Part shown: one piece after another, positions 1 to 18,990 of the stretch
How positions within the stretch are numbered: the first letter of the stretch is position 1
Layout of the letters: each line of letters opens with the position of its first letter
Assembly: GCA_905181595.1 (NCBI GenBank)
Contig: CAJIYI010000001.1
Span: 3,551-67,550 of the forward strand
DNA: 64,000 bases
Direction: 5' to 3'
From: an uncultured SAR86 cluster bacterium
GTDB lineage: Bacteria > Pseudomonadota > Gammaproteobacteria > Magnimaribacterales > D2472
The notes under the pieces: model-generated
The model's input: only the letters and a program-made list of their open reading frames with translations
The model's database searches: none
Told to the model about the DNA's origin: nothing
Position numbers and translations under genes: made by a program

Positions 1-29
1 TCGATGACCTAATTGATCAAGGCCTAACT

Positions 30-1097
30 ATGGACCTTGCATACGATTACTTTTTTAGTGGTCCTGATCATGCTTTTGATCCAAGCCGAGCAGTTGCACA
101 ATTAGACTACTCAAAAAATAGCTCATGGGCAGCTTTGCCATTGATGAAAGATGAAGCAGACATGATTCCTGAGGGTGAGAGCGGAATAGATCAAAACAAC
201 TCTCCAGTCGATGTATTTTTTGTGCATCCAACTGGTTACCTCAAAGGCGATCACTGGACAGATCCACTGGAAGAAAAATCAGCAACCATGGAGAACACCC
301 AATGGATGATGGCAAATCAGGCAAGTGCTTACAATGGATGTTGCAGTGTCTATGCCCCTCATTATCGTCAAGCATCAATTTACAGTTATTTTGGTAGCGA
401 TGAGCTTAGAGCAGAAGTCCACAATTTTGTTTATCAAGATGTTAAAAAATCATTCGAGTATTTTATTGAGAATTTTAGTAATGGCCGCCCATTTATTATT
501 GCCAGTCACAGCCAAGGAACACACCATTCAATTCGCTTATTAGCCGAGGAGATCGACTCATCGGGCTTATACCCAAGAATGGTAGGGGCTTATATTATTG
601 GCGGGATGATATCCAAAGACTGGATGAGTAAAATGGAAAATATTGGGGTATGTGATAGCGCTGAGCAGCTTGGATGTTTGGTTCACTGGGACACAATGAA
701 TGTTGCGCAGATCAACAAAGACCTGCCTGTATATTCAAACAACATATGCGTTAACCCCATTACCTGGAAAAATGAAGGCTCTCTCTCAGAGCTTCAAGAT
801 GCCAAAGGTGCTGTGCATGTTTCGGGAGAATTTAATTTAGAATTTTCAGGGGATGACGGGCCAACAGATCAGATATTTACTCCTTTAGGAGCCCCTGTAA
901 AGAAATATGTTCAGGCCCAATGCAAAGATGGGGCGCTATTTGCCTCGGATCAAACAGGCACAAGATTTCAAACATTTGGTGGTTCAGGCGGAAATTACCA
1001 TGGCTTAGATTACGCTCTCTTTTATATGGACATTAGAGAAAATGCTAAGTTAAAAGTCTCAACGTATCTAAATTCTTTAGAAGCGCAGCAGAAATAA
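30..1097 (+). CDS. DUF3089-like alpha/beta-hydrolase-fold protein
   Basis: 355-aa ORF. It has YAPHYRQA and the nucleophile-elbow-like IIASHSQG, a pattern I associate with DUF3089. The family call is from memory of the motifs. Confidence 0.55.
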   Translation: MDLAYDYFFSGPDHAFDPSRAVAQLDYSKNSSWAALPLMKDEADMIPEGESGIDQNNSPVDVFFVHPTGYLKGDHWTDPLEEKSATMENTQWMMANQASAYNGCCSVYAPHYRQASIYSYFGSDELRAEVHNFVYQDVKKSFEYFIENFSNGRPFIIASHSQGTHHSIRLLAEEIDSSGLYPRMVGAYIIGGMISKDWMSKMENIGVCDSAEQLGCLVHWDTMNVAQINKDLPVYSNNICVNPITWKNEGSLSELQDAKGAVHVSGEFNLEFSGDDGPTDQIFTPLGAPVKKYVQAQCKDGALFASDQTGTRFQTFGGSGGNYHGLDYALFYMDIRENAKLKVSTYLNSLEAQQK

Positions 1098-1100
1098 ATT

Positions 1101-1427
1101 ATGTCTTCTTACCTAGCCCTGCTTGGAGCCATTATATTTGAGGTCATGGGCACTTTATTGCTGCCCGCCACAAAAGAATTTACATCAACCATTCCTACCA
1201 TTGCTATGAGTGCTAGCTATATAGCATCATTTTATTTTTTAACTTTGGCACTTAAAACAATTCCCTTGGCCATAGTTTATGCATGTTGGAGCGGCGTCGG
1301 CATTATGGCGATAGCCATACTATCTTATTTTATTTATGGGCAGAGCCTAAGCTGGCAGTCTATCTTGGGAATATTCTTAATAATAAATGGAGTTATTCTT
1401 GTTAATATATACTCCACCAATCCATAA
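1101..1427 (+). CDS. SMR-family small multidrug efflux protein (EmrE/SugE-like)
   Basis: 108 aa with four hydrophobic helices. A membrane-embedded Glu sits in IIFEVMGT, equivalent to EmrE Glu14. Confidence 0.8.
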   Translation: MSSYLALLGAIIFEVMGTLLLPATKEFTSTIPTIAMSASYIASFYFLTLALKTIPLAIVYACWSGVGIMAIAILSYFIYGQSLSWQSILGIFLIINGVILVNIYSTNP

Positions 1428-1441
1428 AACAGGAGCACATT

Positions 1442-2140
1442 ATGTCTTCAGAAATCGCAACTCTAAGCCAAGAAAATAATGTTTCAATTATTCAGCTAGA
1501 TGATGGAAAAGCGAATGCATTTTCTTATGAAATGCTGACCAGGTTCAACGAACTGCTTGCAGAGGTTCCAAGAGATTCAGGTGCCTTGATTATCACCGGG
1601 AGAGATGGATTATTTTCAGGTGGTTTTGATCTTAAGACCCTTGCCACCGGCGATATGGAAAAAATCCAAAAGATGGTCACCTTAGGCTACAAAACTTTAT
1701 TAGATCTTTATGGCTTTGATAGGCCTATCATTGCTGCAGTTTCGGGCCATTCAATTGCGCTTGGTTTATTTGTAACATGCTGTGCAGATTATAGAATTGC
1801 AATAGATGGCCAATACATATGCCAGGCAAATGAAGTAAGAAATAATATGGATATTCCAATCCAAATCATGGAAATATTAAAGGCCAGAGTAAATAAAAAT
1901 TATTTTTATCCTGCTGTTTATCATTCAGACGCATATTCTATGAAAGATTCTATTGCGGTTGGTTTCATTGATGAGGTTGTTGCAGAAGATAAGTTTATGG
2001 AGAGGGTCATGGAGAAGGCCGTTGAACTATCCTCTCTTCCACATCCTTTTTATGTCAAGACCAAACATTTTGCTCAAGAGGATGTAATGCAAAAGATAGC
2101 AGATGCCATTGAGAAATACGAAAAATTAACGGCAAGTTAA
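1442..2140 (+). CDS. enoyl-CoA hydratase/isomerase (crotonase) family protein
   Basis: 232 aa. It has the crotonase oxyanion-hole pattern LFSGGFDLK and AAVSGHSIALG. Confidence 0.75.
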   Translation: MSSEIATLSQENNVSIIQLDDGKANAFSYEMLTRFNELLAEVPRDSGALIITGRDGLFSGGFDLKTLATGDMEKIQKMVTLGYKTLLDLYGFDRPIIAAVSGHSIALGLFVTCCADYRIAIDGQYICQANEVRNNMDIPIQIMEILKARVNKNYFYPAVYHSDAYSMKDSIAVGFIDEVVAEDKFMERVMEKAVELSSLPHPFYVKTKHFAQEDVMQKIADAIEKYEKLTAS

Positions 2141-2161
2141 AATTCCTTTAAACTAACTTTA

Positions 2162-2753
2162 ATGAAACAAAATAAAACATTTATTCCAGATCACTTGATT
2201 GCAAATAGACCAAAGGTTTTAAAGCTGATTGGTAAATTAGCCATGAAGGTTACTGGCTGGAAAACAGTTGGTCATTTCCCGAAAAGATGAGAGGGTGTTA
2301 TTGGTGGCTGGGCCTCACACTTCAAATTGGGATTTTGTTCTTGCGATGTCCCTTATTCTCAGCCTTGATGTTAACTTCCACTGGATTGGCAAACACTCTG
2401 TTTTTAAAAAGGGCTTTAGAAGATTGCTAAGAAAAATGGGAGGCATTCCTGTTAACAGAGCAAACCCCGCCGCTCTCAAGCAAGAAATTCAGAATGTAAC
2501 TGATAAATATAAAGGCTTTCTAATTGTTATAGCTCCCGAGGGGACAAGGCAGAAAGTTAAAAGGCTCAAGTCAGGGTTCCTAAGAATTGCGAATGAAACT
2601 AATAGCCAAATTATGATGGCAGGAATTGATTTCTCAAACAAAACTATTGAGCTTGGCGATTTTTTTAGTCCAACTGGTAACGTAGAACAGGATCTAGAAA
2701 GCATCAGGGAGTATTTTTCAAATTTTTCAGGCAAAAGACCTGAGTTTTTTTAA
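2162..2753 (+). CDS. lysophospholipid/glycerol-3-phosphate acyltransferase family protein (apparent frameshift)
   Basis: The HX4D acyltransferase motif PHTSNWD and the EGTR motif APEGTR lie in ORF 2268..2753. The N-terminus (MKQNKTF...GWKTVGHFPKR) is in another frame starting at ATG 2162. The junction is near 2280-2290 in the ccc/aaaa runs. Confidence 0.6.
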
Positions 2754-2779
2754 AGAAAGCAAAGCCTAGGGGCAAAGGG

Positions 2780-4238
2780 ATGTTAAAAAAATTATTACTT
2801 TCATTCGTTTTGATTATTGGCGCACTGCTTTCAATAGCCCTTGTCAGAACTCTCATGCACTCTGCACCAGAGCCAACAGTCAATGTGGGTGTAACCGCTG
2901 ACATTGATGGCGAAGCTGCAACCAATAATCTGGCTGCATCTATTAGGTTTAAGACTATTTCTCATCAAGATAAAGAGAAATTTTCACCCCAAGAATTTGA
3001 AGGTTTTATTAAATGGGCTGCCGATACTTATCCTGAATTTCATTCAGCAATGCAGCTCGAGATGCTTGAGTACACTTTGCTTTTTAAATGGGAGGGCAGC
3101 GACAACAGCCTTGCACCCATTCTATTAACTGCACATTACGATGTAGTCCCTGTTATTCCAGGCACCGAGAGTATTTGGGAAGAGGAACCTTTTGCTGGAG
3201 TAATTTCAAACAATAGAATCTGGGGCAGAGGGGCGTTGGATGACAAAAGCGGTGTCGTTGGGATGATGGAGGCAGCAACTTATTTAATTAAAAACAACTT
3301 TCAGCCTACCAGGACTGTTTACTTTAGTTTTGGTCATGACGAAGAGATTGGTGGTGGTGGAGCGGCCCAGGTTACAGAAAAACTTAAACAAGAGGGAGTT
3401 CAACTTCAATGGTCTCTTGATGAGGGCTCGTTCGTAAGTAGAGGATTTTTTCCGGGTGTGGATAAGTTGGTTGCGGCTATTAACGTAGCTGAAAAAGGAA
3501 TTATGAACCTATTAATTGTTGCAAAAGCAAAAGGTGGGCACTCTTCAACACCTCCCGAAGAAAACAGCCGTGAACATTCTTGCGGATGCTCTCATCAAGC
3601 TAGAAAATGAGCCGCTTCCTGGAAGCCTAGAAGGCTTAAGTGCGGTTATGTTTGATGAAGTCAGCAAACACATGCCATTTGGATACCGTTTTCTTTTTGC
3701 AAATAGATGGCTTTTTGGAGGCTTACTAGACAGCCAGATGTCTTCTACCCCATTAATTAATGCAATGATTAGAACAACCACGGCGCCAACGATGCTAAAT
3801 GGAAGCATCAAGAGCAATGTTTTGCCAATTGAAGCCACAGCACTTATTAATTTTAGACTTCATCCCAGAGACTCTATTGAGAGCGTTACCGAGCATGTAA
3901 GAAGAGTCGTTGGATCTGATCAAGTAGAAGTTCGGACTTTGGGAGGCATGGAGGCATCGGGCGTTTCTTCTTGGGAATCGCCTGGCTATGAAATCATCTC
4001 ATCTTCTTTGAGCAAAGTTTATGGTGAGGTTGTGTCAGTTCCAGGCATTATGATTGCAGCCTCTGATACACGCCACTATTCAAAAGTTGCAGACAATTCT
4101 TTTAGATTTAATCCATTTAGCATCGTTCCAGAAGACATGACTGGATTCCATGGAACAAACGAAAGCATTGCCGTAGATAGTTTTATTGCCGGCATTAAAA
4201 CCTATGTTGATATTATCAACGAAGGATCGAGCAACTAA
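2780..4238 (+). CDS. M20/M25/M40 family metallopeptidase, carboxypeptidase S-like (apparent frameshift)
   Basis: Motifs HYDVVP, GRGALDDK, GHDEEIGG and GGHSSTPP are present. Two ORFs (2780..3610 and 3516..4238) join as GGHSSTPP/KTAVNILADAL near 3557-3565. The N-terminus is a hydrophobic anchor. Confidence 0.8.
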
Positions 4239-4243
4239 TTAGC

Positions 4244-4975
4244 ATGGAAGCCTCAAGCCTGGCTTTAAAAGTTTATTTAATCCTTGGATTTGAGTTGGCA
4301 GTTCTTTATGGCTGTATGTTTTTCGTTGTTCGCCAATGCAAAAAGGCGTTTTATGCCAACACTACATTTTTAGGCATTTCATTTGCCGAGGCTGTAAATC
4401 AAAACAGGCAGACCGACATAGCAATAGTTCAGAGCAATGGCACAACTCACTTCTTTTTCTTTTTAATTTTATTCGCCATCTTTTCACTCTGGGCAGCAAC
4501 TGCCGTTATTATTTTTTCTACCTCTTTTATACAAATTGTATTTATGACCCTTAGTGCAATTGGCTACGGTTTAGTTATAGGCTTTATTGTTATGGACATG
4601 GATGAAAATGATGGCATGACAGGTCTAAAGCTTGCGACCTTAACAAGTGCTGCAATGTTTATCGTAGTTGCTGTGACCGGAATTAACTTTGCAAATCCAA
4701 TTTTTATAACGATAGTTACGGCTTTAATTTTAATTCTACTTTTTTCAGAGTTTGTTTCTATGTTTAAGAAAATTTCCCGAGGGTATGCAAGAAAAAAAGC
4801 CATAGCGGGAATTATTACTTTCTCCCTGTCATTGCTTGTTTCAATTAGCTCGGTCAATATAAGTGCTGATCAAGGTTTAAATAACTGGGATACAGCTATT
4901 TCTCATGCCTTTGATATGTACCTAAATATTATTAATATCATTTTGTATTTTTTAGAACTAATGGGTAATAGCTAG
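4244..4975 (+). CDS. hypothetical multi-pass membrane protein
   Basis: 243 aa with 6-7 hydrophobic segments. No diagnostic motif was recognised. Confidence 0.5.
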   Translation: MEASSLALKVYLILGFELAVLYGCMFFVVRQCKKAFYANTTFLGISFAEAVNQNRQTDIAIVQSNGTTHFFFFLILFAIFSLWAATAVIIFSTSFIQIVFMTLSAIGYGLVIGFIVMDMDENDGMTGLKLATLTSAAMFIVVAVTGINFANPIFITIVTALILILLFSEFVSMFKKISRGYARKKAIAGIITFSLSLLVSISSVNISADQGLNNWDTAISHAFDMYLNIINIILYFLELMGNS

Positions 4976-4982
4976 TATTTTT

Positions 4983-5489
4983 ATGGCAATCAACTCAAAG
5001 TTTAAAATGTTAGTGCTTAGCCATGACGGCGCTCATGATGACCAGCTTCAAAAAATTTATGATTTAAATCAAGCCAACACCCCAGAAGTTGGATCGTTAG
5101 AATCTAAGAAGCATTTAACTAAATTATTAGAGCTCAGCGCATATAATTTATTGATATTAAACGGTGATGAGGTGATTGGATTTATTATTTGCATGAGAGA
5201 GGGCTCAGATTACGGCTCGGAAAATTATAAATTTTTTAGCAAAAAACTTAAGAAATTTTTGTATGTAGATAGGGTTGCAATCGACAAAAAATATAGAAGA
5301 GAGGGTCTTGGCAAGGCTATTTATGATGATATTTTTATCCAAGCTAAAAAGGAGAGCCTGCCCATTGCGCTAGAGGTCAATACTCAACCCATTAACCAGC
5401 CATCATTAAATTTTCATGAGAAGCTGGGCTTTGACGAGGTTGGAGCGAAAGATTTCTCTGATCACAGCGTTGCTTACTTTATAAAATAA
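4983..5489 (+). CDS. GNAT family N-acetyltransferase (COG3818-like)
   Basis: Acetyl-CoA motif A is YVDRVAIDKKYRREGLGKAIY. The ALEVNTQPINQPSLNFHEKLGF tail is typical of this GNAT subgroup. Confidence 0.75.
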   Translation: MAINSKFKMLVLSHDGAHDDQLQKIYDLNQANTPEVGSLESKKHLTKLLELSAYNLLILNGDEVIGFIICMREGSDYGSENYKFFSKKLKKFLYVDRVAIDKKYRREGLGKAIYDDIFIQAKKESLPIALEVNTQPINQPSLNFHEKLGFDEVGAKDFSDHSVAYFIK

Positions 5490-5495
5490 CTTTTT

Positions 5496-6224
5496 ATGAA
5501 ATTTTTAAAATATCTCCCAATCCTTTTATTAACCTTAGGTGCTTGCAATGGACCGACCCCATCCAAAGTTCAGCTCAGTGATTTTCAAGACAACGTTTCG
5601 GTAAAAATATCAGGCGCGCGTCTTATTGACTTACCAATGGGGATGCAACCCTTGGAATCAAATCTGCTTAATGCCAATGAAATTACAGTGGCAGCTCATG
5701 GGGGTTCCAGCGAAGGGTATGAGTGGGTATATCCGCTGAAGACTTTAGACACTCCAACGAATGAAGTATTTTTTTACAGATGGCCAGACAATGGGTGTTA
5801 CAAAGATTCTGGGGACAGACTAATTGAAGAATTAGAAAATCTTTTAAACCAAAACATTCAAATTAAAAAAGTTACCCTGATTGGTCACAGCTATGGAGGC
5901 ATTTTGGTAACCCACCTCTTAAATAATTGGAAAAATACGGTTACCCTTGATGCACACATTATTGCATCGCCGCTTCAAGGCAACACCTCTTTGAATACAT
6001 TATGTGGCTATAAGCCTGAGGTAAATTTAAAGCCCATGGCTAATTTGTTTGAGTGGAGAACGCAACAAGATCTAGACAGTGCATTTAAAGATCTCCCAAA
6101 GAATCCTCAAAACATTGAAATATCAGGAAGTTTTGTCACAGTTTTGCCAGACACATACAAGGGCCATCGACTTGGACACAACTGGTCAATCAGCTGGGTT
6201 GCAGATCAATTAAAGAAACCTTAA
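5496..6224 (+). CDS. lipoprotein, alpha/beta-hydrolase (lipase/esterase-like)
   Basis: The signal peptide carries the lipobox LTLGAC. The serine nucleophile elbow is LIGHSYGG. Confidence 0.6.
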   Translation: MKFLKYLPILLLTLGACNGPTPSKVQLSDFQDNVSVKISGARLIDLPMGMQPLESNLLNANEITVAAHGGSSEGYEWVYPLKTLDTPTNEVFFYRWPDNGCYKDSGDRLIEELENLLNQNIQIKKVTLIGHSYGGILVTHLLNNWKNTVTLDAHIIASPLQGNTSLNTLCGYKPEVNLKPMANLFEWRTQQDLDSAFKDLPKNPQNIEISGSFVTVLPDTYKGHRLGHNWSISWVADQLKKP

Positions 6225-6283
6225 AACTCCTATTTAATATCCCTTAGTCTTCCTGTAAGCTCTACAAAAAACTAAAATACACC

Positions 6284-7258
6284 ATGTCATTACCTAAAAT
6301 TTTACAAAATAATCTTTCAATTCCAGTAATTGGATCGCCTCTTTTTTTATGTTCTGGACCAGAGCTAGTGATTGCTCAGTGCAAGGCTGGGATCGTTGGA
6401 TCTTTTCCTGCATTGAATGCAAGACCGCAACCAGTTCTTGATGAATGGATCATTAGAATCAAGGAAGAGCTTGCTCAAGCGAAATTAGACAACCCCGAGC
6501 TTCCGATTGCGCCGTTTGCAGTTAATCAAATTTGTCATGCTTCAAACGATCGATTGATGGCGGACATGGAATCATGTGTTAGACATGAAGTGCCAATTAT
6601 TATCACTTCCTTGCGACCACCTGAAGAAATTGTTACAGCAGCTCATTCATATGGCGGTCTTGTTTATCACGACGTGATAAGCGTGAGACATGCAAAAAAA
6701 GCAGCAGAACAAGGCGTTGATGGACTTATTTTAGTTTGCTCTGGTGCAGGTGGACATGCTGGAACCTTGTCACCTTTTGCGTTGGTTAGAGAAGTAAGAG
6801 AATTCTTTGATGGCACCATTATTCTTTCTGGAGCTATCAGTTCAGGCAGTGCTGTGGCATCTAGCTTGGCACTGGGAGCTGACCTGGCTTATATGGGCAC
6901 GCGATTTATCGCAACCGAAGAAGCCAATGCAGACAAGGAATATAAAGACATGTTGATAGAAAGTGCCGCGCATGACATCGTCTATTCATCTTTATTCACT
7001 GGGGTTCACGGAAACTATCTTGGGCCATCCATTGAAAAGGCTGGACTTGATCCAGTTAACCTTCCAGAGGCTGATAAAAGTTCTATGAATTTTGGTTCAG
7101 GCGGAAACACTGAAGCCAAAGCTTGGAAAGATATCTGGGGATCTGGTCAAGGGATAGGTTCTATAAAAGATTCGCCAACTGTTCAAGTCCTTGTTGATCA
7201 ACTCAAGCAGGAGTATCTAGCGGCGACCGAAGACTTTAAAGCAAAATCAGTTTATTAA
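6284..7258 (+). CDS. nitronate monooxygenase / NAD(P)H-dependent flavin oxidoreductase (NMO family)
   Basis: 324 aa. It has GSFPALN, CSGAGGHAG and YMGTRF, which are characteristic of 2-nitropropane dioxygenase-like enzymes. Confidence 0.8.
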   Translation: MSLPKILQNNLSIPVIGSPLFLCSGPELVIAQCKAGIVGSFPALNARPQPVLDEWIIRIKEELAQAKLDNPELPIAPFAVNQICHASNDRLMADMESCVRHEVPIIITSLRPPEEIVTAAHSYGGLVYHDVISVRHAKKAAEQGVDGLILVCSGAGGHAGTLSPFALVREVREFFDGTIILSGAISSGSAVASSLALGADLAYMGTRFIATEEANADKEYKDMLIESAAHDIVYSSLFTGVHGNYLGPSIEKAGLDPVNLPEADKSSMNFGSGGNTEAKAWKDIWGSGQGIGSIKDSPTVQVLVDQLKQEYLAATEDFKAKSVY

Positions 7259-7270
7259 CCTAATTGATAT

Positions 7271-7688
7271 TTACAGGTCTCCGTCTTTTCGGTGTTCACT
7301 TCTGTCTACCTCAAACTTTTCCCCGTATCTGGCTTCAAGTTTATCTTGGTTTTCTTTAATCACTTCGTAAGGATCAAGTTTTAGGGCCATACAAGCAGTA
7401 GCCCAGTACCACATGATGTCGCCCAACTCTCGTTTCATATGATAAATATTATCTTCATTTGCAGGCTTTCCTTGGAGAAACATTTTTTTAACTATTTCAA
7501 CAAACTCCCCTGTTTCGCTGCCTAAGCCAAGAGCCGCAGTAAGAAGTCTTGCAGATTCAATTGGCGATGAAGAATCGATTTCCTTCATTCTTTCATCTAA
7601 GCTCGATTGATTCATGACTTGGCTCACTGGTTACTTTGGTTACAAAGTCCCCATAGCTGTTTAAAAAATTTCTTGCTTCTTCACTCAT
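7271..7688 (-). CDS. MazG-like nucleoside triphosphate pyrophosphohydrolase, phage-type (apparent N-terminal frameshift)
   Basis: The MazG core is GLGSETGEFVEIVKK...RELGDIMWYW in ORF 7271..7627, which starts at GTG. An N-terminal helix (MSEEARNFLNSYGDFVTKVTSEPS) reads from ATG 7688 in another frame. That ATG overlaps the upstream glycosyltransferase stop as ATGA. Confidence 0.7.
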
Positions 7689-8699
7689 AAAATTCTCCTA
7701 TTTTTTATTGGGTTTTTTTTCCAATCTATTGATACCAAAAAAGTAGACTCAGTTGCCTGCTCTAAATCTATACCTTTTTGTTTTTTAAATCTATTCCACT
7801 GATCGATTGCATAATCATCTAAAGATCTTTCGGAGCCAAGACCCATTGAGCCCTCTATATTTTCAGCAAATAAATCATCAAGCCTATCCAAACTTTTCTT
7901 TTCTAGCTCATTCCACTTAATGGCTCTATTTTTATCATCTTCAGGATCCCAATGCAGCTTCCTGGGAATATTACTGACATCTGTATAGAGGTGGAACAAA
8001 GGGACATCTGGAATATGAAAAAATGAAAAACCATGCGTAAAAGCTCTAAGAGCCATAGATAACTCCTCGCCATAGAAATAATAATTGGGATCATAAGGTA
8101 TGTCCTCAACAAATCTTCCTCGAGTAAATATGCAGCCTGCTGCCATTAAGTAGGCATGAGTAATGTCCGTGTACTTTGTAGGAATACCTATTTGCCTAGA
8201 AAATGATCCGCGAGAAAACAGGCTATCTTTTCTGTAAGTAATAACTTGAGTATGTTTGTCTCCGGTATTGAGTTCAAATCAAGCCTTTGTCAAAATCTAG
8301 AACTTTGAAGCTTCTAGGATAAGAAGTAATAATTGGTTTCGCAAAATAGTTATCATTAATTTGCTCAGCTTCAATTTTTAATAATGCCTCTTCAAACAAT
8401 ACATCCCAATTTGGCAAGAACTGCGTATGTGAATCAATTTGTAAAAAATAATCCTCGCCTTGATAGAAACTTTGAGCTCTGTGCCTTGCCCAGCATGGAC
8501 CTTTTGAAAAGACCGGATCCACATGCTCATATCTGACTTGCTTTTCAAAGGTTAAATCTTCTATATTCACAGGGTTGTCTGATTGATCACAGATACTAAA
8601 AATTAATTCATCTTTGTTTGTAGCGTTGTTATAGGCACCAAAGATGGTCGAAACAAGCAGCGGGTCTTGATAGGATGCGATTGAAATAAATATGCTCAT
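7685..8699 (-). CDS. GlcNAc-transferase-family glycosyltransferase (Skp1-Hyp GlcNAc-transferase/PF11397-like; apparent frameshift)
   Basis: N-terminal half: MSIFISIASYQDP...GPCWARHRAQSFYQGEDYFLQIDSH..WD. C-terminal half: AAGCIFTRGRFVEDIPYDPNYYFYGEELSMALRAFTHGF. The downstream frame is open up to about 8272, so one indel near 8272-8285 joins both halves. No signal peptide. Confidence 0.6.
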
Positions 8700-8744
8700 T
8701 TTGTATGCGTTTTGTTCTTTGTTAGCATACAATTATTTCAACCT

Positions 8745-9386
8745 ATGAATACAGAATACCCAAAAAAAATTGCTGAAAATGTCACCATGTACTCAGGTGA
8801 TCCAATCTTATATGTGGTTGATAATTTTGTAAGTGACTTAGAATGCGAAGCCTTTGTAGAAGCATCACAGGGCAAGCTTCAACCATCTACTGTTATTAGC
8901 CCAGATCAGCATATTCAACATGAAAGCAGAACCAGTGATAATTGTTGGATAGAGCATGATGCTAATGATATTGTTCATGAGGTCAGTAAAAGGCTCTCAA
9001 TTTTGACGCAAATACCTATTCGTAATGCTGAACAGTACCAACTCGTCTTTTATAAAAAAGGCGCTCAATACAAACCTCATTTTGATTCATTTGATTATGA
9101 GACAGAGGACGGAAAGAAAAACTGGGAACCAGGCGGACAACGCATGGTAACTGTTTTAGCTTATCTCAATGATGTGGAAGAGGGCGGTGGAACAGATTTC
9201 CCTGAACTTGGTGTAACTGTGACAGCAAAAAAAGGCGATGTTGTTGTTTTCCATAACACTTTATCTGAAACCCCTGCACCCAAGCATCCTAAAATTCATC
9301 CAAAATCTTTGCATGCCGGAATGCCCGTTCTCAAAGGTGAAAAGTGGATGGTTAATTTATGGTTTAGAGAAAATCTACGCTACTAG
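8745..9386 (+). CDS. prolyl 4-hydroxylase-like 2OG-Fe(II) oxygenase
   Basis: The facial triad is HFDSFD (HxD) plus the distal His in LHAGMPV. The 2OG-binding Lys is in GEKWMVNLWF. No signal peptide. The first ATG is at 8745, and the track ORF starts at TTG 8712. Confidence 0.8.
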   Translation: MNTEYPKKIAENVTMYSGDPILYVVDNFVSDLECEAFVEASQGKLQPSTVISPDQHIQHESRTSDNCWIEHDANDIVHEVSKRLSILTQIPIRNAEQYQLVFYKKGAQYKPHFDSFDYETEDGKKNWEPGGQRMVTVLAYLNDVEEGGGTDFPELGVTVTAKKGDVVVFHNTLSETPAPKHPKIHPKSLHAGMPVLKGEKWMVNLWFRENLRY

Positions 9387-10229
9387 TTATTTTAACTTCA
9401 AAGAATTCTGGCTTGTCACAATATTAAACAAATGATCTTGCGCTTCAGGCTTAAGCTGCGCAACGCCTACTGCCAAAACATCAATAATGGCCATGTAAGC
9501 TAGCCTTGAAGTTAGCGGTCTCGTCAAACGAGCATTTTCACCAACATCGATGTCTAAAGCTATGTCACAAATTCTCGAAAGCGGAGTTCCAGAAGGCATT
9601 AAGCCAATCACTATCACCCCAAAACTTTTAACCGTTTTAATGCTCTCTACTAAAGCAGCGGTATTTCCCGATTGAGAGATGGCGACCACTACATCTTTCT
9701 TGTTCAGTGAGTTTGCAGACATGAACTGAATGTGAGGATCAGAAATACATGAAGATGGAATTTTTAATCTAAAAAACTTGTGCTGGGCATCCATGGCCAC
9801 TGGCACTGAGCCACCAAAGGCATAAAACTCAACCCTCTTGGCATTAGCCAAAGTCTCAATAGCTTCTTCTACCACCTCTTGGTTTAACTGAGATCGTACA
9901 TTTAATATCTCACTAATAGTGCTATCGAAGACTTTTTCAGTCACCTCTTGAATGCTGTCATTGGGATCAATTTCATATGAATTAAAATAATTATCTGCTG
10001 CTAACTGTTGAGCTAGCGTCAGTTTAAATTTCTGAAATCCATTAAACCCAATGGCCTGACAAAACCTAATAAGTGTTGGCTCGCTAACACCGATTGCACC
10101 TGAGGCCTGAGCAGTGGTCAATTCAATAATATCGTCAGGCTTATTTAAAACAAACTCTGCGACCTTTACCTCAGATTTTCTTAAATCGGGCAAAGCATTT
10201 TTAATTTCTCTCAATAATTTAGTTTGCAT
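9387..10229 (-). CDS. RpiR/MurR-family transcriptional regulator (HTH + SIS domain)
   Basis: The N-terminal HTH_6 pattern is KVAEFVL...AQASGAIGVSEPTLIRFCQAIGFNGFQKFK. The C-terminal SIS pattern is VVVAISQSGNT. Confidence 0.85.
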   Translation of the reverse strand: MQTKLLREIKNALPDLRKSEVKVAEFVLNKPDDIIELTTAQASGAIGVSEPTLIRFCQAIGFNGFQKFKLTLAQQLAADNYFNSYEIDPNDSIQEVTEKVFDSTISEILNVRSQLNQEVVEEAIETLANAKRVEFYAFGGSVPVAMDAQHKFFRLKIPSSCISDPHIQFMSANSLNKKDVVVAISQSGNTAALVESIKTVKSFGVIVIGLMPSGTPLSRICDIALDIDVGENARLTRPLTSRLAYMAIIDVLAVGVAQLKPEAQDHLFNIVTSQNSLKLK

Positions 10230-10271
10230 AAGGGTTAGAATAGGCTTCTTAGATTAAAAAATGAACCCCCC

Positions 10272-12447
10272 ATGGATGTTTCTCACATATTAGAAAATTT
10301 AAACGATCCTCAGCGTGAGGCCGTAACATCTGAAGATAAAAGTTTGCTTGTATTGGCAGGCGCTGGGTCTGGTAAAACTCGGGTATTGGTTCATCGCATT
10401 GCTTGGAATGTTGAAGCCATGGGCATTAATCCCTCGTCGATTATCGCAGTAACCTTTACAAATAAAGCAGCCAAAGAAATGCAATCACGCATTCAAGAAT
10501 TACTGCAGTCTCCTGGTGGAGACATGTGGTGCGGAACCTTTCATGGTTTGGCACACAGAACCTTAAAAAGATTTTACAAAGAAGCAGGATTAATTTCTGG
10601 CTTTACTATCTTAGACAGCGATGATCAATTGCGTATTGTTAAGCGCTTAACCAAAGAAGCCGGTCTTGATGATGCCGCATGGCCACCCAAACAGATTCAA
10701 TGGCAAATTAATGGCTGGAAAGACGAGGGCATCAGAGCCGACGATGTTTCTGATAAGGGTGATTTTTATGCTCAGACAGTCAAAGGCATTTACAAGCATT
10801 ACGAAGAAGCTTGCGCCAACGATAGTCTGGTAGATTTTGCAGAGCTGCTGCTTAGAGCCTATGAGTTGGTTAAATCTAACAAAACAGTGAAAGAGTTTTT
10901 TCACAATCGATTTAAGGCAGTGTTGGTGGATGAGTTTCAGGATACCAATACCATTCAGTACAACTGGCTCAAAGAGATTGCATCAGACGCTGCAACGATC
11001 ACAGCCGTTGGTGATGACGATCAGTCTATTTATGGGTGGAGGGGCGCCAAGGTAGAAAATATTTCATCTTTTGAATCAAGCTTTGAAGGCTCAAAAGTCA
11101 TTCGCCTTGAGCAGAACTATCGCTCCACCAGCGTGATCTTGGGTGCAGCCAATGCCTTGATAGACAACAATCAAACTCGCCTAGGCAAAAACTTGTGGAC
11201 TGATTCTTTAGAAGGCGAGCGCATCACTCTTTATCAAGCCTACAACGAACAAGACGAGGCAAGATTTATAGCGGGAGTTCTTAAAAGCTGGATGGAAGGC
11301 GGAGAGTTATTTAGTGATGCAGGAATTGTTTATCGATCCAATGCCCAATCAAGAGCTCTTGAGGAAGCGCTGCTTAGAGTGAATATTCCTTATCGAATCT
11401 ACGGCGGTCTGCGTTTCTACGAGCGCATGGAAATTAAAAATGCCATGAGCTACCTAAAAGTTATTTTTAACCCGCATGACAATCCTGCCTTTGAGCGCTC
11501 TATTGCAAATCCTACTCGAGGGATTGGTGTTAAGTCACAAGCAAAAATTCGTGATACTGCCAAGGCTTACAATCTTTCTTACATTAAAGCAGCAGCCAAA
11601 CTGCACGACGAAGGCAAGATGGGTGGCAAAGCCGGTCAAGGCCTCAATGCATATTTAGCTCTTATCAGTGAATGCATTGGGCTGCTAGACACCATGCCGC
11701 TGTCTGAGTTGATGGACATGATCATTCAAAAATCAGGGCTGTATCAATACCACAAAAAAGAAGCTGGCGAGAAGGGCAAGACTAGAATAGAAAATTTAGA
11801 AGAGCTGGTGACTTCGGCCAAAAACTTTGAGCAATCTTTTGAAAGTGAAAAATCTCACAAAGAAATTGCTGAAATTTTTCTCGATACTGTCTCTCTTGAT
11901 TCTGGAGATACTCAAGCCGATGAATTTCAAGATGCGGTGCAGCTCATGACTCTGCATTCTGCCAAAGGCTTAGAGTTTCCTTTGGTGTTTATTACAGGTC
12001 TGGAAGAAAGTTTGTTCCCGCACGGTCGATCCATTGAATCTCCCTCTCAATTAGAGGAAGAGAGAAGGCTTTGTTATGTTGGCATTACGCGGGCCATGAA
12101 AAAACTTTACCTGACTCACGCAGAATCCAGGCGACTCCATGGTTCAGATGTATTTAATCCGCCGTCACGATTTTTAAAAGAAATTCCTGCTGTCTTTATT
12201 GAAGAGGTCAGACCCAGGGCTTCGGTGAGCACGCCTTACGTTCGAACCGCTAAAAAATCTAAAATGGATTTTAAGGATGAAGTTGGAATAGGCCTTAGGA
12301 CAAAAAGTAGTACACCCTACCTTTGGGCTAGGAGTCGTTCTAAACTATGAGGGATCGGGTGAATCTGCAAGGGTTCAAATTAATTTTGAGAAAGCCGGCA
12401 GCAAGTGGCTGGTTCTGGCGTTTGCAAAACTGGAGACATTGGGATGA
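10272..12447 (+). CDS. uvrD: DNA helicase II UvrD (apparent C-terminal frameshift)
   Basis: The N-terminus is near-identical in pattern to E. coli UvrD (LNDPQREAV..LVLAGAGSGKTRVLVHRIAW). The conserved tail HPTFGLGVVLNYEGSGESARVQINFEKAGSKWLVLAFAKLE is in another frame and ends at TGA 12445-12447. The junction is at the A5 run 12302-12306. Confidence 0.9.
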
Positions 12448-13541
12448 AACATTTTTTAATTTCAGGGCTGGCACTTTGTTTTTTAAGCAGCTGCGGAGCT
12501 CCAGAAGAGACTGCCGCTGGAGTTGCTCCTGTCAAAAATTATTCTTGGTCCATGGTGACAACTTGGCCAAAAAATTATCCAGGCTTAGGCATGGCGCCCG
12601 AGCGATTCAGTCAATTAGTTGAAGAGATGTCACAAGGTCAATTAAAGGTAACGGTTTATGGAGCGGGTGAATTGGTTCCTGCCATGGGCGTATTTGATGC
12701 AGTGTCTGGCGGCTCAGTAGAGATGGGTCACGGCGGAGCTTATTACTGGAAGGGGAAGGTTCCAGCAGCACAATTTTTTGCAGGCGTGCCTTTTGGTTTT
12801 ACGGCCGATGAGATCAATGCCTGGGTAAACAGAGGAGGCGGACTAGAGCTTTGGGAAGATCTGTACCGTCCTTTTAATTTAAAGCCTTTGCCTGGCGGCA
12901 ACACCGGCACCCAAATGTTTGGTTGGTTTAACAAAGAAATTAATTCGCTAGAAGATATCAAAGGATTAAAAATGCGTTTTCCTGGTTTTGGTGGAGAGGT
13001 CTTCAAAAGAGCTGGCGGCATACCAGTCAATATTCCTGGCGGAGAGCTTTACACCGCAATGCAAACCGGGACCATTGATGCGGTTGAATGGGTAGGCCCA
13101 TACAACGATTTAGCTTTTGGTTTTCAGCAAGTAGCCAAATACTACTATTATCCTGGTTGGCATGAGCCCGGCTCCATGCTTGAATTTACGATTAACATTG
13201 ATGCTTGGGATACATTGCCTCCTCATTTGCAGGCAATAGTTACCACAGCTGCCAAGGCTGTGAACCAAGACTTATTAGATGAATACACTGCTTCTAACAA
13301 TCGAGCCTTACAAGATTTAATTGAGAATCACGATGTCCAGCTCAGAGAACTGCCCAAAGATGTCATCAATGAATTTAGAATTATTTCTGAGGAGATTTTA
13401 GAGACTTCCGCTGCAAACGATCCCGATGTTAAAAAAGTCTACGACTCATTTAAAACTTTCCTAGCAGAGGTCAAAGGCTTTCATGCCATTGCCGAGGATG
13501 CATTTGTAGAGGCCCGAACAAACAGTGACGGCGACTCCTAA
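12444..13541 (+). CDS. dctP: TRAP transporter substrate-binding protein (DctP family, COG4663-like), lipoprotein
   Basis: The internal Met at 12444 gives MKHFLISGLALCFLSSC, which carries a lipobox. This ATG overlaps the uvrD stop. The body is typical of TRAP periplasmic components. Confidence 0.8.
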   Translation: MKHFLISGLALCFLSSCGAPEETAAGVAPVKNYSWSMVTTWPKNYPGLGMAPERFSQLVEEMSQGQLKVTVYGAGELVPAMGVFDAVSGGSVEMGHGGAYYWKGKVPAAQFFAGVPFGFTADEINAWVNRGGGLELWEDLYRPFNLKPLPGGNTGTQMFGWFNKEINSLEDIKGLKMRFPGFGGEVFKRAGGIPVNIPGGELYTAMQTGTIDAVEWVGPYNDLAFGFQQVAKYYYYPGWHEPGSMLEFTINIDAWDTLPPHLQAIVTTAAKAVNQDLLDEYTASNNRALQDLIENHDVQLRELPKDVINEFRIISEEILETSAANDPDVKKVYDSFKTFLAEVKGFHAIAEDAFVEARTNSDGDS

Positions 13542-14130
13542 GTTCATTCAGTTAGGCAATCAAGCCTACGCAGACACCTATGAGAAAATGCGCTCACTGG
13601 TTCAAGCAGATTCCTTTGATGATGAGATCTGGTTGCTTGAGCACGACGCAGTTTTTACACTGGGCACTGCAGCCGATCCCTCGCATGTTTTAAATCCTGG
13701 AAATATTCCAATCGTTCAAACCGACAGGGGTGGCGAGGTTACTTTTCATGGTCCAGGGCAATTGGTTATTTATTTTCTTTTGGACATTAAGACAAAGAAG
13801 ATAGGTCCCAAGGCATTGGTCGCCAATTTACAAAACCTTATTCAAAATATTCTGCAACATTACTCCATAGAGAGTTCCTTTGTTGAAGGCGCACCTGGCG
13901 TTTATGTGGGGGAGAAAAAAATTGCTTCCATTGGCCTTAGAATCTCCAAAGGCCGAACTTACCACGGCATTAGTTTAAACGTGGACATGGATCTGGAGCC
14001 TTTTAGCCGGATTAACCCTTGCGGGTATGAAGGCTTAGAAGTCACGCAAATTAGTCATTTTGATTCAAATGTCACCATGGAAGGAGTAGAATCAGTCGCA
14101 ACAGAAGAGTTAAAAAAATTATTTAAGTAA
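13525..14130 (+). CDS. lipB: octanoyltransferase LipB
   Basis: [16 protein letters not shown] and the [12 protein letters not shown] motifs are present. It lies directly upstream of lipA. Confidence 0.9.
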
Positions 14131-15113
14131 TGGAAATTATCCCCACTCAAAAAATTGTTAATCGCGATGGCATCAAGGCTGTAAAAAATGGTCAGAAAGC
14201 CAATCAGTATTCTTCTATTCCCAATCAAAAAAAACCAGATTGGATCAGGGTCAAAGCTACCTTTGATGCAAACTTCAAGGCGGTCAAAAAACAAGTTCAA
14301 GACAAACGTCTCAACACAGTATGCGAAGAGGCCATGTGCCCAAACATCTCAGAATGTTGGTCAGCTGGAACAGCAACCTTTATGTTGATGGGATCGGTCT
14401 GCACCAGAGCTTGCAAGTTTTGTTCGGTCGATACAGGCAACCCAAAAGGCTGGTTAGATCTAGATGAGCCAATGCACACGGCCAAAGCTGTAAAGACCAT
14501 GGGCCTTAAGTACGTTGTTTTAACCTCGGTTAACAGAGACGATTTGGAAGATGGCGGAGCAGAGCACTATGCTCAAACTGTTAAGGCGATTAAAGAACTC
14601 AATCCAGACACTGCAGTTGAAGCTTTAACACCAGACTTTAAAGGCCTCTCTTCTTCTATTGATACTTTGGTCAATTGTGGACTAGAAGTTTTTGCTCAAA
14701 ACGTAGAAACAGTCAAACGACTCACTCACCCAGTCAGAGATATTAGAGCAGGATACGAGCAAACTCTTGAAGTCTTGGCAGAATCCAAAAGAATCAACCC
14801 AAAGGTTCTGACCAAAACAAGTTTAATTTTAGGTTTAGGCGAAACAGATGCAGAAATAGAAGAGACCATGGATGATCTAATTGCCAACAAAGTAGATATC
14901 TTAACGCTGGGTCAATACCTCAGACCCACCTTGAATCACTTACCTGTCGAGCGATGGGTGACCCCGAAAGAATTTGAGAGATATAGAGTGATTGGATTAG
15001 CTAAAGGTTTTCTAGAAGTTGTTTCTGGGCCAATGGTTCGCTCAAGCTATAGAGCCGAAAGAGCATTAGAGAAAAATAACGCAGGCCTTTCTGTGGTTAA
15101 TGCGCAAAGTTAA
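14130..15113 (+). CDS. lipA: lipoyl synthase LipA
   Basis: It has the radical-SAM cluster [10 protein letters not shown] and the auxiliary cluster [13 protein letters not shown]. The start overlaps the lipB stop as TAATG. Confidence 0.95.
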
Positions 15114-15333
15114 AAATAACTACAAACAAGACGCCTGTTCCTAGAACACCAAGAACACATATCACCCAATCCACCAAAAAAACTTTAAACAGTTTCGACC
15201 AAACACCTTGGTCACTCTGATCTGATTGAAGTTCTTTTTTGAAGACTTCCATGGCTGCATATTTAAACCATGAAAAAGTTACTAAAAATGTAATGGCACC
15301 AAAAGCAAAAAGTAGAGAGTTAGAATTCAGCAT
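15097..15333 (-). CDS. hypothetical small membrane protein
   Basis: 78 aa with two hydrophobic helices. It lies immediately downstream of dctM on the same strand. No family recognised. Confidence 0.35.
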
Positions 15334-15355
15334 TTAGTTATTTTAAAGCCTCTGA

Positions 15356-16684
15356 TTAAAGAACAAAAGCAGGAAAGACAATGACCGCTAAAAGTACTGC
15401 TAATTGAATAATAATAAAGGGCACGACACCTTTATAAATATCTGTAGTCTTAATGCTTTCATCTGCAACTCCTCTTAAATAGAAGAGAGAGAAACCAAAA
15501 GGTGGCGTTAGAAAGAAGTCTGAAGATTGATGGCCATGAGTATTCCCAGCCAAACAGGATCAAACCCCATCATCAAAAGTGGCGGAGCGACCAAAGGAAT
15601 AATCACATAGCAGATCTCTATGAAATCTAAGATAAATCCAAAAAGGAAAATTGCCAGCAAGACAAACAGAAGGGCAGTGTATTTCCCGCCAGGCATCATC
15701 TCAAAGATTTGATCTACCAATAGATCGCCACCCACTCCCCTAAAGATTAAAGAAAAAATAGATGCGCCAATCAAAATACAAAAGATCATGGTGGTAACTG
15801 TTGCAGCTTTGTAGCTAGTCTCTCTTAGCAGGTCTAAATTAAAGCTCCCGTTGAGACTGGTAATAATTAATGCACCAAAAGCACCCACACCAGCAGCCTC
15901 TGTTGGGGTTGCGATGCCAGCAATGATTGAGCCCAAGACAACAAATATTAAGAGTTGCTGGCGGCAGCAGGGTTTTAAGAATATTGGCTTCACCCTCGAT
16001 TCCCTCTAATGGCGCGAATTGTTTATTTCGATTAATAAAGATGGCATAAATTAAGTAACCAACAACAATTAAGATTCCTGGAACGATTGCACCTACAAAC
16101 AAATCACCCACTGAGACTGTCTCTTGAGAAAAGATGCCCATGTTATTTTGAGCTCTTTGATAGGCGTTCGACATAACATCGCCAAGAAGCACCAGTGCAA
16201 TAGAGGGAGGAATGATTTGACCCAAAGTTCCAGTCGCAGCCACTAATCCAGAAGAGAATTCTTTGCTGTAGCCTTGCTTGAGCATTGCCGGCAAGGACAT
16301 TAGGCCCATGGTGACAACCGTTGCACCAACGATCCCTGTGCTTGCAGCCAAAAGTGCTCCAACAATAATGATTGAGATGCTTAATCCAGAATTAGTGTTC
16401 TTAAAAACCAGCGCCATGTCTTTAAGCATTTTGGCTGCAATTCCCGATCTCTCAAGGACAACGCCCATAAAGACAAACAAGGGAACCGCTAACAAGGTTT
16501 GATTGTTCATGATCCCAAAAATTCTCATGGGAATCGTTTTAAATAAATTGGGGTCAAAGAAATCGAAGGATGCACCCAAGAGCGCAAATAAAATTGAGGT
16601 TCCTGCAAGGGTAAAAGCGACAGGGTAGCCAAGCAGCAAGGCCATGCAAACCATGACAATTAAAATAATAGGAATTATTTCCAT
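15356..16684 (-). CDS. dctM: TRAP transporter large permease DctM (two apparent frameshifts)
   Basis: Three consecutive ORFs (15839..16684, 15508..15993, 15356..15553) read through as one DctM. The joins are ...LKTLLPPA/LLIFVVLGSIIAGIATPTEAAG... and ...AINLQTSF/LTPPFGFSLFYLRGVA. Confidence 0.85.
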
Positions 16685-17127
16685 AGCTTATGCAGCTCCT
16701 TCAATCCGGCTATCCCAAGAACCATTGGAAATAAAAATATAAAAGACTTTTGAATGAATACGGTGCTTAGCCCACCTGGCTCAGTTGAAATTTCTTTGAC
16801 AGCCCAAGACGCTGAAATAAAATCGATGGAATAGTAACCAATGACTCCAAGCATAGGAGCGAGTAAAAATACTACTCCAAAACTGTTAACCATTTTCTGA
16901 TATTGGGGCGAAGCGTTGCGGTAAAAAATATCTACTCTGACATGTTCGTCTTGAGAGTATGCCCAGCCAGCACAACCCAAGAAAATTAATGCATGTACAT
17001 ATAAAGCCAGCTCTTGAATATCGGCTCGACCCATGCCAAAAAAATATCGACTAACCACAACTATCATGACCAATAAAAGCAGCACCGGAAGCAAGCGGGC
17101 AAAAAAACGGCCAAAGAAATCATTCAT
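16675..17127 (-). CDS. dctQ: TRAP transporter small permease DctQ
   Basis: 150 aa with four TM helices. Its end overlaps the start of dctM. Confidence 0.75.
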   Translation of the reverse strand: MNDFFGRFFARLLPVLLLLVMIVVVSRYFFGMGRADIQELALYVHALIFLGCAGWAYSQDEHVRVDIFYRNASPQYQKMVNSFGVVFLLAPMLGVIGYYSIDFISASWAVKEISTEPGGLSTVFIQKSFIFLFPMVLGIAGLKELHKLWK

Positions 17128-17166
17128 GCTATGTATATTAATAGAGAATTGTTTAAAATAAGAAAT

Positions 17167-17934
17167 ATGTTAATTTTATTATCGCCAGCAAAAACACTAG
17201 ATTACAGCAAAGACTTTGATGTAAAGCCTACTGCGCCTGCATTTTTGTCTGATTCTTCTAAGCTAATTAAAGAGCTCAAAACAAAAGAGCCTAAGGACAT
17301 AGCAACCCTAATGGGGCTAAGCGATAACCTTGCGACATTGAATTTTGATCGCTATCAATCTTGGAAAGCAGCCAAATCTATTAGCAGCGACAGCAAACCT
17401 GCGCTCTTTGTTTTTCAGGGAGATGTTTACCAGGGACTGAAAGCCGAAACATTTAACAAAAAAGACATAGCGTTTGCCCAAAAACATTTACGCATTCTCT
17501 CAGGTCTATACGGAGAACTCAGACCTCTTGACGTCATCAAACCCTATCGATTAGAAATGGGAACCAAGCTGCCTACCAGCAAAGGAAAAAATCTCTATGA
17601 GTTTTGGGGCAATAAGATTCAAGAAAATCTTTTAAAGGAACTGAAGGCGAATAAATCTGAGCTGATAGTCAACCTAGCTTCCAAAGAATACTTTAGTGTT
17701 GTTGGCTCTTTGCCTAAGAACATTGAGGTTGTTGCTCCGGTATTTAAAGACCTTAAAAATGGTGAATATAAGCTTATTAGTTTCTATGCAAAAAAAGCCA
17801 GAGGCTACATGAGCAACTGGATCATCAAGAACAAAGTCACTGCAGCAAAAGACCTAGTGAAATTTAAAGAAGAGGGCTACAAATACTCTAAAAAGCTTTC
17901 AACCCCTGAAGAGCCAGTATTTTTAAGGGACTAA
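17167..17934 (+). CDS. yaaA: peroxide stress protein YaaA (UPF0246/DUF328)
   Basis: The canonical N-terminus MLILLSPAKTLDY starts at the internal Met 17167. LRILSGLYGELRPLD is also present. Confidence 0.85.
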   Translation: MLILLSPAKTLDYSKDFDVKPTAPAFLSDSSKLIKELKTKEPKDIATLMGLSDNLATLNFDRYQSWKAAKSISSDSKPALFVFQGDVYQGLKAETFNKKDIAFAQKHLRILSGLYGELRPLDVIKPYRLEMGTKLPTSKGKNLYEFWGNKIQENLLKELKANKSELIVNLASKEYFSVVGSLPKNIEVVAPVFKDLKNGEYKLISFYAKKARGYMSNWIIKNKVTAAKDLVKFKEEGYKYSKKLSTPEEPVFLRD

Positions 17935-18944: not shown

Positions 18945-18990
18945 AGCTACAATAGGTTACGTTTACAAAAAATTATAATGGCTTGAATCT

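Follow-up and report, generated by a model that had tools for sequence, protein, structure and literature searches.

A prolyl 4-hydroxylase, a GT60-family glycosyltransferase, and MazG encoded side by side in SAR86 bacteria: a candidate module for proline hydroxylation and O-glycosylation

Three neighboring genes on the chromosome of a SAR86 cluster bacterium raise the question of whether bacteria possess a pathway that hydroxylates a proline residue of a cytoplasmic protein and subsequently attaches a sugar to the new hydroxyl group. The genes, which were recognized by an open reading frame (ORF) listing and three-frame translation, encode a prolyl 4-hydroxylase (P4H), a glycosyltransferase (GT), and a MazG-like nucleoside triphosphate (NTP) pyrophosphohydrolase. 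They are located in a 64,000-nucleotide (nt) stretch of contig CAJIYI010000001.1 (assembly GCA_905181595.1, positions 3,551 to 67,550), the whole of which is termed the window below. The window is a part of a SAR86 chromosome, and the nearest named homologues of the GT are also from SAR86 cluster bacteria. A preliminary description of this DNA, made from the sequence alone, suggested a cytoplasmic hydroxyproline (Hyp) glycosylation module or, alternatively, a phage-derived island, and pointed out that two of the three genes are frameshifted. With slightly better than even confidence, we favor the reading that the trio is a functional proline-hydroxylation/O-glycosylation module of SAR86 and that the frameshifts in the window are sequence errors. 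The suggestion of such a module gained comparative support from the adjacency of P4H and GT in 52 of the 80 genome loci examined, from fusions of the two families in Beta- and Alphaproteobacteria, and from a GT model the top 49 structural matches of which were polypeptide O-glycosyltransferases only.

The P4H gene (8745..9386, forward strand) is intact and encodes a protein of 213 amino acids (aa), the exact sequence of which is listed in 346 blocks of a public collection. A P4H-like 2-oxoglutarate (2OG)-Fe(II) oxygenase had been read from position 8745 onward in the preliminary description, and this was borne out. The protein scored 57.2 bits against PF13640 (cutoff 27), the only family matched in the Pfam scan, in which neither a TET/JBP nor an AlkB family was reported, and its Fe(II) triad (His112-x-Asp114 and His190) and 2OG-binding Lys200 aligned with the residues of Chlamydomonas P4H-1 (2JIG). 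Judging from this alignment, Lys200, ten residues past the distal His190, would bind the C5 carboxylate of 2OG. A search of the sequences in the PDB gave full-length matches to Chlamydomonas P4H-1 (5e-30, residues 13-207), the catalytic domain of the human collagen P4H (C-P4H) alpha-2 (7ZSC, 5e-28), Bacillus anthracis P4H (3ITQ, 2e-27), and PBCV-1 P4H (5C5T, 2e-19). The matches at E<=1 comprised collagen-type P4Hs and P4H-TM only, with none to PHD2, PhyA, or PPHD, and the 2OG-binding residue is Lys200, not the Arg of the PHD/PhyA/PPHD type. We regard the SAR86 P4H, by its sequence affinity, as an enzyme of the collagen/plant type rather than of the Skp1/HIF/EF-Tu (PhyA/PHD) type, and hydroxylation of peptidyl proline is its predicted activity. 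Of the "Skp1-type" character proposed earlier, the transferase family (PF11397/GT60) stood, while the hydroxylase turned out to be of the collagen/plant/viral type. As for its location in the cell, no N-terminal hydrophobic signal was seen by eye, with no signal-peptide predictor used, in P4H (in agreement with the preliminary description), GT, or MazG.

The GT gene (7698..8699, reverse strand) is broken in the window and encodes 333 aa in intact alleles. The frame-corrected protein scored 150.3 bits against PF11397 ("GlcNAc"; cutoff 21), and PF11397 was found in all of the 120 close GT homologues listed. Its DxH motif, Asp89-Ser-His91, is invariant in two alignments (A1 and A2). In GT27 and GT60, the DxD motif for metal and nucleotide-sugar binding takes the variant form DxH, and the two families have polypeptide O-glycosylation in common (PMC7185993; PMC8724618). 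The PDB sequence search with GT detected no solved relative, including any Gnt1 structure that could serve as a reference. When an AlphaFold model of the protein (pLDDT 90, pTM 0.92) was compared with the PDB by Foldseek, the top 49 matches were all GT27 polypeptide GalNAc-transferases, with structural E values from 6e-10 and TM-scores of ~0.5-0.6 on the query. The GT, as modeled, is a GT-A fold protein closest to the GT27 polypeptide transferases. GT27 enzymes are protein O-glycosyltransferases with the same DxH motif, but their sequence identity to the SAR86 GT is 13-18%, and the latter has neither a lectin domain nor a membrane anchor and belongs to a different family (GT60/PF11397).

As had been described, the GT gene starts at 8699 and diverges from P4H, the two start codons being separated by a region of 45 nt common to both genes (8700..8744). 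Across the SAR86 loci, the start codons of P4H and GT are ~20-50 nt apart, and an intergenic element of the form ATAATTGTAT(G/C)(C/T)TA-like (or AATTATACTATTT), which is present in the window, recurs in most of the SAR86 lineages (L010-L084). A scan for sigma-70 promoters and terminators gave counts no higher than those in shuffled sequence. The conserved element in 8700-8744 may have a promoter function; it may be a shared -10 box or an operator, which would imply very short leaders.

The third gene, which had been described as MazG-like, lies at 7271..7688 (reverse strand); it is broken in the window and encodes a phage-type, single-domain NTP pyrophosphohydrolase of 138 aa in intact alleles. 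Its assignment was confirmed by a score of 33.7 bits against PF03819 (cutoff 22) after frame correction and by a match to PHROG 229 (1.7e-41), and with it all three families predicted for the trio in the preliminary description were recovered above their cutoffs. In NCBIfam, none of the three proteins had a model. The MazG motif is intact (E58xxE61...E87xxD90, 25 residues apart; EXXE-(12-28)-EXXD expected). The protein shares 54-62% identity with its counterparts in cyanomyophages, marine viruses, and jumbo rhizobiophages, while the PDB sequence search found no significant match. An exact look-up of the truncated MazG ORF of the window returned no record, consistent with a frameshift private to the window. 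MazG of the cyanomyophages S-PM2, S-SM2, and P-SSM2 is, like that of SAR86, a single-domain protein of ~130-140 aa with EXXE...EXXD (PHROG 229, 54-57% identity), but the phage gene lies in a replication module whereas the SAR86 gene is chromosomal and in an operon with GT. The preferred substrates of the cyanophage enzyme are dGTP and dCTP, and (p)ppGpp is not hydrolyzed by it (PMC6850273). We dropped the idea that a P4H-like gene consistently adjoins MazG in cyanomyophages, as the neighboring ORFs in S-SM2 were not P4H-like by HMM.

The preliminary description had taken the overlap of a TGA (7685-7687) with the ATG of MazG (7686-7688) for translational coupling of GT and MazG. This overlap is an artefact, because it was created by indels specific to the window (see below). 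The true GT stop is a TAG (7698-7700), which is followed by a spacer of 9 nt (7689..7697, reverse strand) and the ATG of MazG (7688-7686), and a Shine-Dalgarno sequence, AGGAG (7699-7695, minus strand), overlaps this true stop codon. Among 50 SAR86 loci, the spacer ranges from 3 to 56 nt and the two genes never overlap, and most of these loci have a GGAG 5' of the ATG of MazG. The spacer and the conserved GGAG are as expected of an operon with a separate ribosome-binding site for MazG rather than of a stop/start overlap.

We then have to ask whether this arrangement is maintained by selection. A scan of one genome per species yielded 442 loci with a GT relative, of which the best 80 were examined. 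P4H was divergently adjacent to GT in 52 of them, all SAR86-like, with the GT being 44-86% identical to the query, and MazG lay directly downstream of GT in 50 of the 50 P4H-GT loci that extend past GT. The adjacency pointed out in the preliminary description is thus kept in SAR86, both for the pair (52/80) and for the trio (50 loci), but not in viruses, in which P4H accompanied GT in 3 of 80 loci and MazG in none. The genes flanking the trio are housekeeping ones, namely those for nitronate monooxygenase (NMO), an RpiR/SIS regulator, UvrD, DctP, and LipB/LipA, and the site is syntenic, with LipA-LipB-DctP-UvrD-RpiR on one side of the trio and NMO on the other, after a variable interval of 0-3 kb. 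The trio is intact even where the flanks change, as in L022, which has no RpiR and NMO, and in L030 and L031, of which the left flank is different. Insertions never fall inside it; the variable interval between MazG and NMO contains unrelated dehydrogenases, and we rejected the genes there as additional members of the module. Between divergent alleles, the dN/dS ratio was 0.03-0.08 for each of the three genes, which marks strong purifying selection. Altogether, the trio is, on comparative genomic grounds, best described as a vertically inherited and selected chromosomal module and not as a phage island.

The broken frames in the window need to be reconciled with such selection. We mapped the window against five independent assemblies ~97.5% identical to it. 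Of the earlier claim of two frameshift zones, the broken frames were confirmed, but the lesions proved to be five 1-nt insertions or deletions (indels) private to the window, namely an extra T at 7615, a missing G after 7703, another missing G after 7770, an extra A at 7806, and an extra T at 8279, with a long homopolymer at none of them. The one at 7615 breaks MazG, the N-terminal helix of which is in a different frame from the remainder, and the other four break GT, the translation of which is spread over two frames. Three of these four, at 7703, 7770, and 7806, alter the C-terminal sequence of GT and give rise to the TGA/ATG overlap mentioned above. Six long contigs (L001-L006) have ~97.5% identity to the window, and both genes are intact in nineteen near-identical public contigs, GT with 333 and MazG with 138 aa. 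In sixteen loci of the same population (L001-L006 and L177-L186), an intact MazG of 138 aa was found without exception and an intact GT of 333 aa in all but one (L180), which is broken at other positions. There were 13 private indels in the first 19.4 kb of the window as opposed to 4-5 in each of four near-identical comparison assemblies. Further sites in 1-19390 of the window are found, for example, at 2281, 12295, 15510, 15948, and 17961-18339, and private indels shorten UvrD (12295; 692 aa vs. 724 aa) and split the genes for an acyltransferase, DctM, and enoyl-CoA hydratase. In the reference frame, the substitutions in the window were mostly at third codon positions, and the ratio of synonymous to non-synonymous codon differences was 28:5 for MazG, 9:1 for GT, and 3:0 for P4H. 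Since the indels are private, housekeeping genes are frameshifted as well, and the substitutions are overwhelmingly synonymous, sequence error is the likeliest explanation; the frameshifts are most probably assembly or sequence errors rather than marks of pseudogenes, although decay in the very recent past retains a slight probability. That GT and MazG are truly dead in this strain, as was also considered in the preliminary description, could be argued from the clustering of the indels (five in 7615-8279 and four in 17961-18339), since ~0.45 would be expected within the 665 nt concerned at the rate of 13 per 19.4 kb. We regard this as highly improbable in light of the intact alleles in the population (15 of 16 for GT and 16 of 16 for MazG), the damage to UvrD and DctM in the same window, the random splits in RpiR and a peptidase carried by the comparison assemblies themselves, the bias toward third codon positions, and the low dN/dS ratios.

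Apart from the indels, the trio showed strong allelic mosaicism in a SAR86 population that is near-clonal otherwise. A comparison of L179 with L182 gave a dS of 1.9 for GT, as opposed to 0.018 for the neighboring NMO and to 0.008 for P4H, and the MazG gene of the window differs from those of most relatives by ~9% at the nucleotide level while its GT and P4H differ by ~1% or less. From such mosaicism, it seems that single genes are often replaced through homologous recombination.

Taken alone, the shared gene order in SAR86 carries little weight as an argument, so we looked beyond SAR86, among representatives of the GT family, which comprised 3847 clusters at E<=1e-3. PF11397 and PF13640 were found in single polypeptides of 520-645 aa in Burkholderiales such as Ramlibacter (P0160, P0271-P0274, P0277, and P0279), and the P4H half of the fusion aligned with the SAR86 P4H over its full length (3e-18). 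In Alphaproteobacteria/Rickettsiales, ~60 giant proteins of 1300-2500 aa combine 4-5 PF11397 domains with an AhpC/TSA peroxiredoxin domain and PF13640/PF13661 (Tpa1-like). PF13640 genes were also found 1-3 kb upstream of GT in three podovirus-like viral contigs (L095, L096, and L098). In a rough neighbor-joining (NJ) tree, the P4H-linked GTs were distributed over at least four separate clades. The repeated fusion of PF11397 with PF13640 is the strongest available argument, from sequence comparison, for a mechanism in which hydroxylation is followed by glycosylation.

Several of these contexts deserve a description in their own right. The Burkholderiales fusion gene (L169 162-6423, L172, L173, and the contig of P0160) lies 3' of that for acetyl-CoA synthetase in three contigs and is followed by either a JmjC/Cupin_8 oxygenase gene plus an acyltransferase_3 gene or a second PF11397 gene; the latter is fused to a methyltransferase in L172, and a GT4 gene is also on the P0160 contig. 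This neighborhood hints at a multi-step glycan. The giant proteins (P0122-P0124 and P0330-P0395), which come from metagenome-assembled genomes (L174 8001-13130; L175/L176 8001-14096), are named just "GlcNAc-transferase family protein," and in two divergent genomes their gene is directly upstream of that for class-I lysyl-tRNA synthetase. In the viral contig L098 (IMG/VR 3300044707_000101, 3661-6999), the genes for a TPR protein, an unassigned 236-aa ORF, two PF13640 oxygenases, and the PF11397 GT form a run upstream of those for DNA polymerase A and a PD-(D/E)XK nuclease. Among cultured phages, the jumbo phages Xoo-sp13 (L008 5995-9690) and Xanthomonas phage XacN1 (L007 5992-9709) possess a PF11397-like GT (450-457 aa) that shares 28% identity with the SAR86 GT; its gene immediately precedes one for a carbamoyltransferase, and genes for NUDIX, RNaseH, and DNA polymerase are found in the vicinity. 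The cluster may serve hypermodification of DNA or nucleotides.

We propose the following scheme for SAR86. P4H and GT would be transcribed divergently from the shared region of ~45 nt, with MazG following GT under its own ribosome-binding site. The P4H, acting in the cytoplasm, would use O2 and 2OG to convert a specific peptidyl proline of some protein to 4-hydroxyproline, and the GT60 enzyme, a putative retaining GT-A transferase with DxH that is also cytoplasmic, would then put a sugar on the hydroxyl group of that Hyp. By analogy with the family, the sugar could be alpha-GlcNAc supplied by UDP-GlcNAc. MazG would act as a co-expressed (d)NTP pyrophosphohydrolase; this is the least certain step, and MazG may be a mere house-cleaning enzyme in the operon.

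The proposed scheme should be weighed against the reading that GT and P4H act separately, the former on Ser/Thr of a protein or on an acceptor of another kind, for instance a glycan or a small molecule, and the latter on an unrelated protein, with their adjacency being historical. The following observations weigh against the scheme, several of them also in favor of such separate action. The conservation in SAR86 partly reflects the general synteny of the whole region, so that adjacency alone is weak evidence. No P4H was found within 6 kb of GT in 28 of the 80 genome loci, including a sister clade of SAR86 GTs, one Porticoccaceae copy, and several Burkholderiales copies, and none nearby in 77 of the 80 viral loci; because GT stands alone in so many loci, the family does not need a neighboring hydroxylase. 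The linkage of MazG to GT is confined to SAR86. Ser/Thr pp-alpha-GlcNAc-transferases are among the characterized GT60 enzymes (PMC8724618). Elsewhere in the PF11397 family, proteins carry a fused methyltransferase or their genes adjoin GT2/GT4 genes as in glycan pathways, and the second PF11397 gene and the GT4 gene near the Burkholderiales fusion likewise resemble glycan assembly. Moreover, no Pro-rich or collagen-like ORF that could be a substrate candidate was found in the window. Nonetheless, we consider separate action unlikely: the two domains became joined in one polypeptide more than once, in two or more classes of Proteobacteria and in GTs of separate clades, the trio is kept where its flanks change, and fusions of PhyA and Gnt1 in many protists provide a precedent (PMC6437050).

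The remaining alternatives take the phage-like features of the trio as their starting point. The oxygenase could hydroxylate a base or nucleotide, the GT glycosylate it, and MazG remove the competing canonical (d)NTP, as in the hypermodification of phage DNA; the phage type of MazG and the dGTP/dCTP preference of its cyanophage relatives (PMC6850273) are in line with this, as are the surroundings of the XacN1/Xoo-sp13 GTs and the viral oxygenase-GT clusters that abut DNA polymerase A and nuclease genes. Modification of nucleotides or nucleic acids is disfavored, however, and in our estimate quite improbable, because the oxygenase is homologous over its whole length to peptidyl prolyl hydroxylases (5e-30), with PF13640 as its sole Pfam match, and the GT has the fold of polypeptide transferases. 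Besides, the trio occupies a stable chromosomal site, and no restriction, DNA-kinase, or polymerase partner was present among the conserved flanking genes. As for the alternative of the preliminary description, a phage-derived island or moron that is mobile or recently acquired and carries phage auxiliary genes, one can cite the 54-62% identity of MazG to phage homologues, the PF11397 relatives on more than 583 IMG/VR contigs, and the P4H-like genes in 297 phage records. Yet we give this alternative very little credence. The trio is found at the same position in SAR86 lineages, flanked by RpiR/UvrD and NMO, even where GT identity falls to ~44%, and its GC content (0.37-0.39) matches that of the window, which is uniform at ~0.39. 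The tRNA and Rfam scans of the window gave no match, and neither phage structural nor integrase genes were seen among the gene calls and Pfam matches in 10 kb on each side of the trio in L001-L006. The trio was found in none of the viral loci, in which MazG was beside GT in 0 of 80; the identity of viral GTs to that of SAR86 is at most 42%, and GT relatives were present in just four cultured phages, at 28% identity. PADLOC reported a generic 2OG-domain match alone and gave no support for a defense system.

Solo GTs were observed in the following settings. Those of the SAR86 sister clade (L056-L077) are 40-47% identical to the query and have neither P4H nor MazG nearby; the one in L077 (6001-6999) sits between a yqgE-like gene and the gamma-glutamyltranspeptidase gene (ggt). 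Two of the best 80 loci belong to complete genomes, one of which has the trio-type and the other the solo-type GT, each once, and this is compatible with mutual exclusivity of the two types. The solo GT of Porticoccaceae bacterium nBUS_09 (L047, 6001-6999) was placed inside the SAR86 trio clade in the NJ tree and is located among housekeeping genes ~3 kb from efp; horizontal transfer of GT alone may account for this case.

How does the proposed hydroxylation-glycosylation module relate to known systems? Like the Skp1 PhyA/Gnt1 pathway of Dictyostelium, Toxoplasma, and Pythium, the trio combines a 2OG/Fe(II) prolyl hydroxylase with a PF11397/GT60 transferase, both enzymes being soluble and cytoplasmic. 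Gnt1, a UDP-GlcNAc:Hyp-polypeptide alpha-GlcNAc-transferase, and the SAR86 GT share the DxH catalytic motif of the GT-A type, and the linkage of the genes, which lie side by side in SAR86 and are joined into one in other Proteobacteria, is as in the Skp1 pathway. In contrast, the SAR86 hydroxylase is of the collagen/plant type with Lys and showed no similarity to PHD/PhyA/PPHD detectable in the PDB search, no elongating transferase of the PgtA, AgtA, or Glt1/Gat1 type was seen in SAR86 (no further GT was found within 10 kb of the trio in L001-L006), and a MazG gene is attached. To our knowledge, bacteria do not possess Skp1, and therefore the target must differ from Skp1. Since the hydroxylase belongs to another P4H clade, Skp1 is missing, and no elongating transferase was seen near the trio, the trio resembles the Skp1 pathway but is not a member of it. 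With regard to the hydroxylase itself, the best whole-length matches are the collagen-type P4Hs (Chlamydomonas P4H-1, PBCV-1 vCPH, B. anthracis P4H, and human C-P4H; 5e-30 to 2e-19), which share the HxD...H...K residues and the N-terminal region with the SAR86 P4H. The plant, algal, and animal collagen-type P4Hs are secretory-pathway enzymes that act on Pro-rich repeats, whereas the SAR86 P4H has no signal peptide visible by eye, no Pro-rich neighbor was found in the window, and the gene is linked to one for a GT60 transferase. Pseudomonas PPHD, which acts on EF-Tu, is a cytoplasmic prolyl hydroxylase of bacteria, as is predicted for the SAR86 P4H, but PPHD is of the PHD type and was not among the PDB matches of P4H at E<=1; we know of no glycosyltransferase partner of PPHD.

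To the best of our knowledge, O-glycosylation of Hyp in a cytoplasmic protein has so far been characterized in protists only, namely on Skp1, in which it serves oxygen sensing. No description of a P4H-GT60 pairing in bacteria, including SAR86, was found in the literature searched. We tentatively extend the idea, at somewhat less than even confidence, to the Alpha-, Beta-, and Gammaproteobacteria in which PF13640 and PF11397 are fused or adjacent: these bacteria may carry out a cytoplasmic, O2/2OG-dependent Hyp-O-glycosylation with a collagen-type hydroxylase, which would be the first bacterial counterpart of PhyA/Gnt1 and possibly its evolutionary relative, and which in SAR86 would be functionally tied to MazG. 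Few heterotrophic lineages of bacteria are as abundant in the surface ocean as SAR86. If the proposal is true, these bacteria would possess a new post-translational modification, potentially responsive to oxygen and 2OG, and a prokaryotic relative of the P4H-GT60 pairing, gene fusion included, would be suggested. It would also provide a testable function for thousands of entries named "GlcNAc-transferase family protein," including the giant proteins of Alphaproteobacteria/Rickettsiales.

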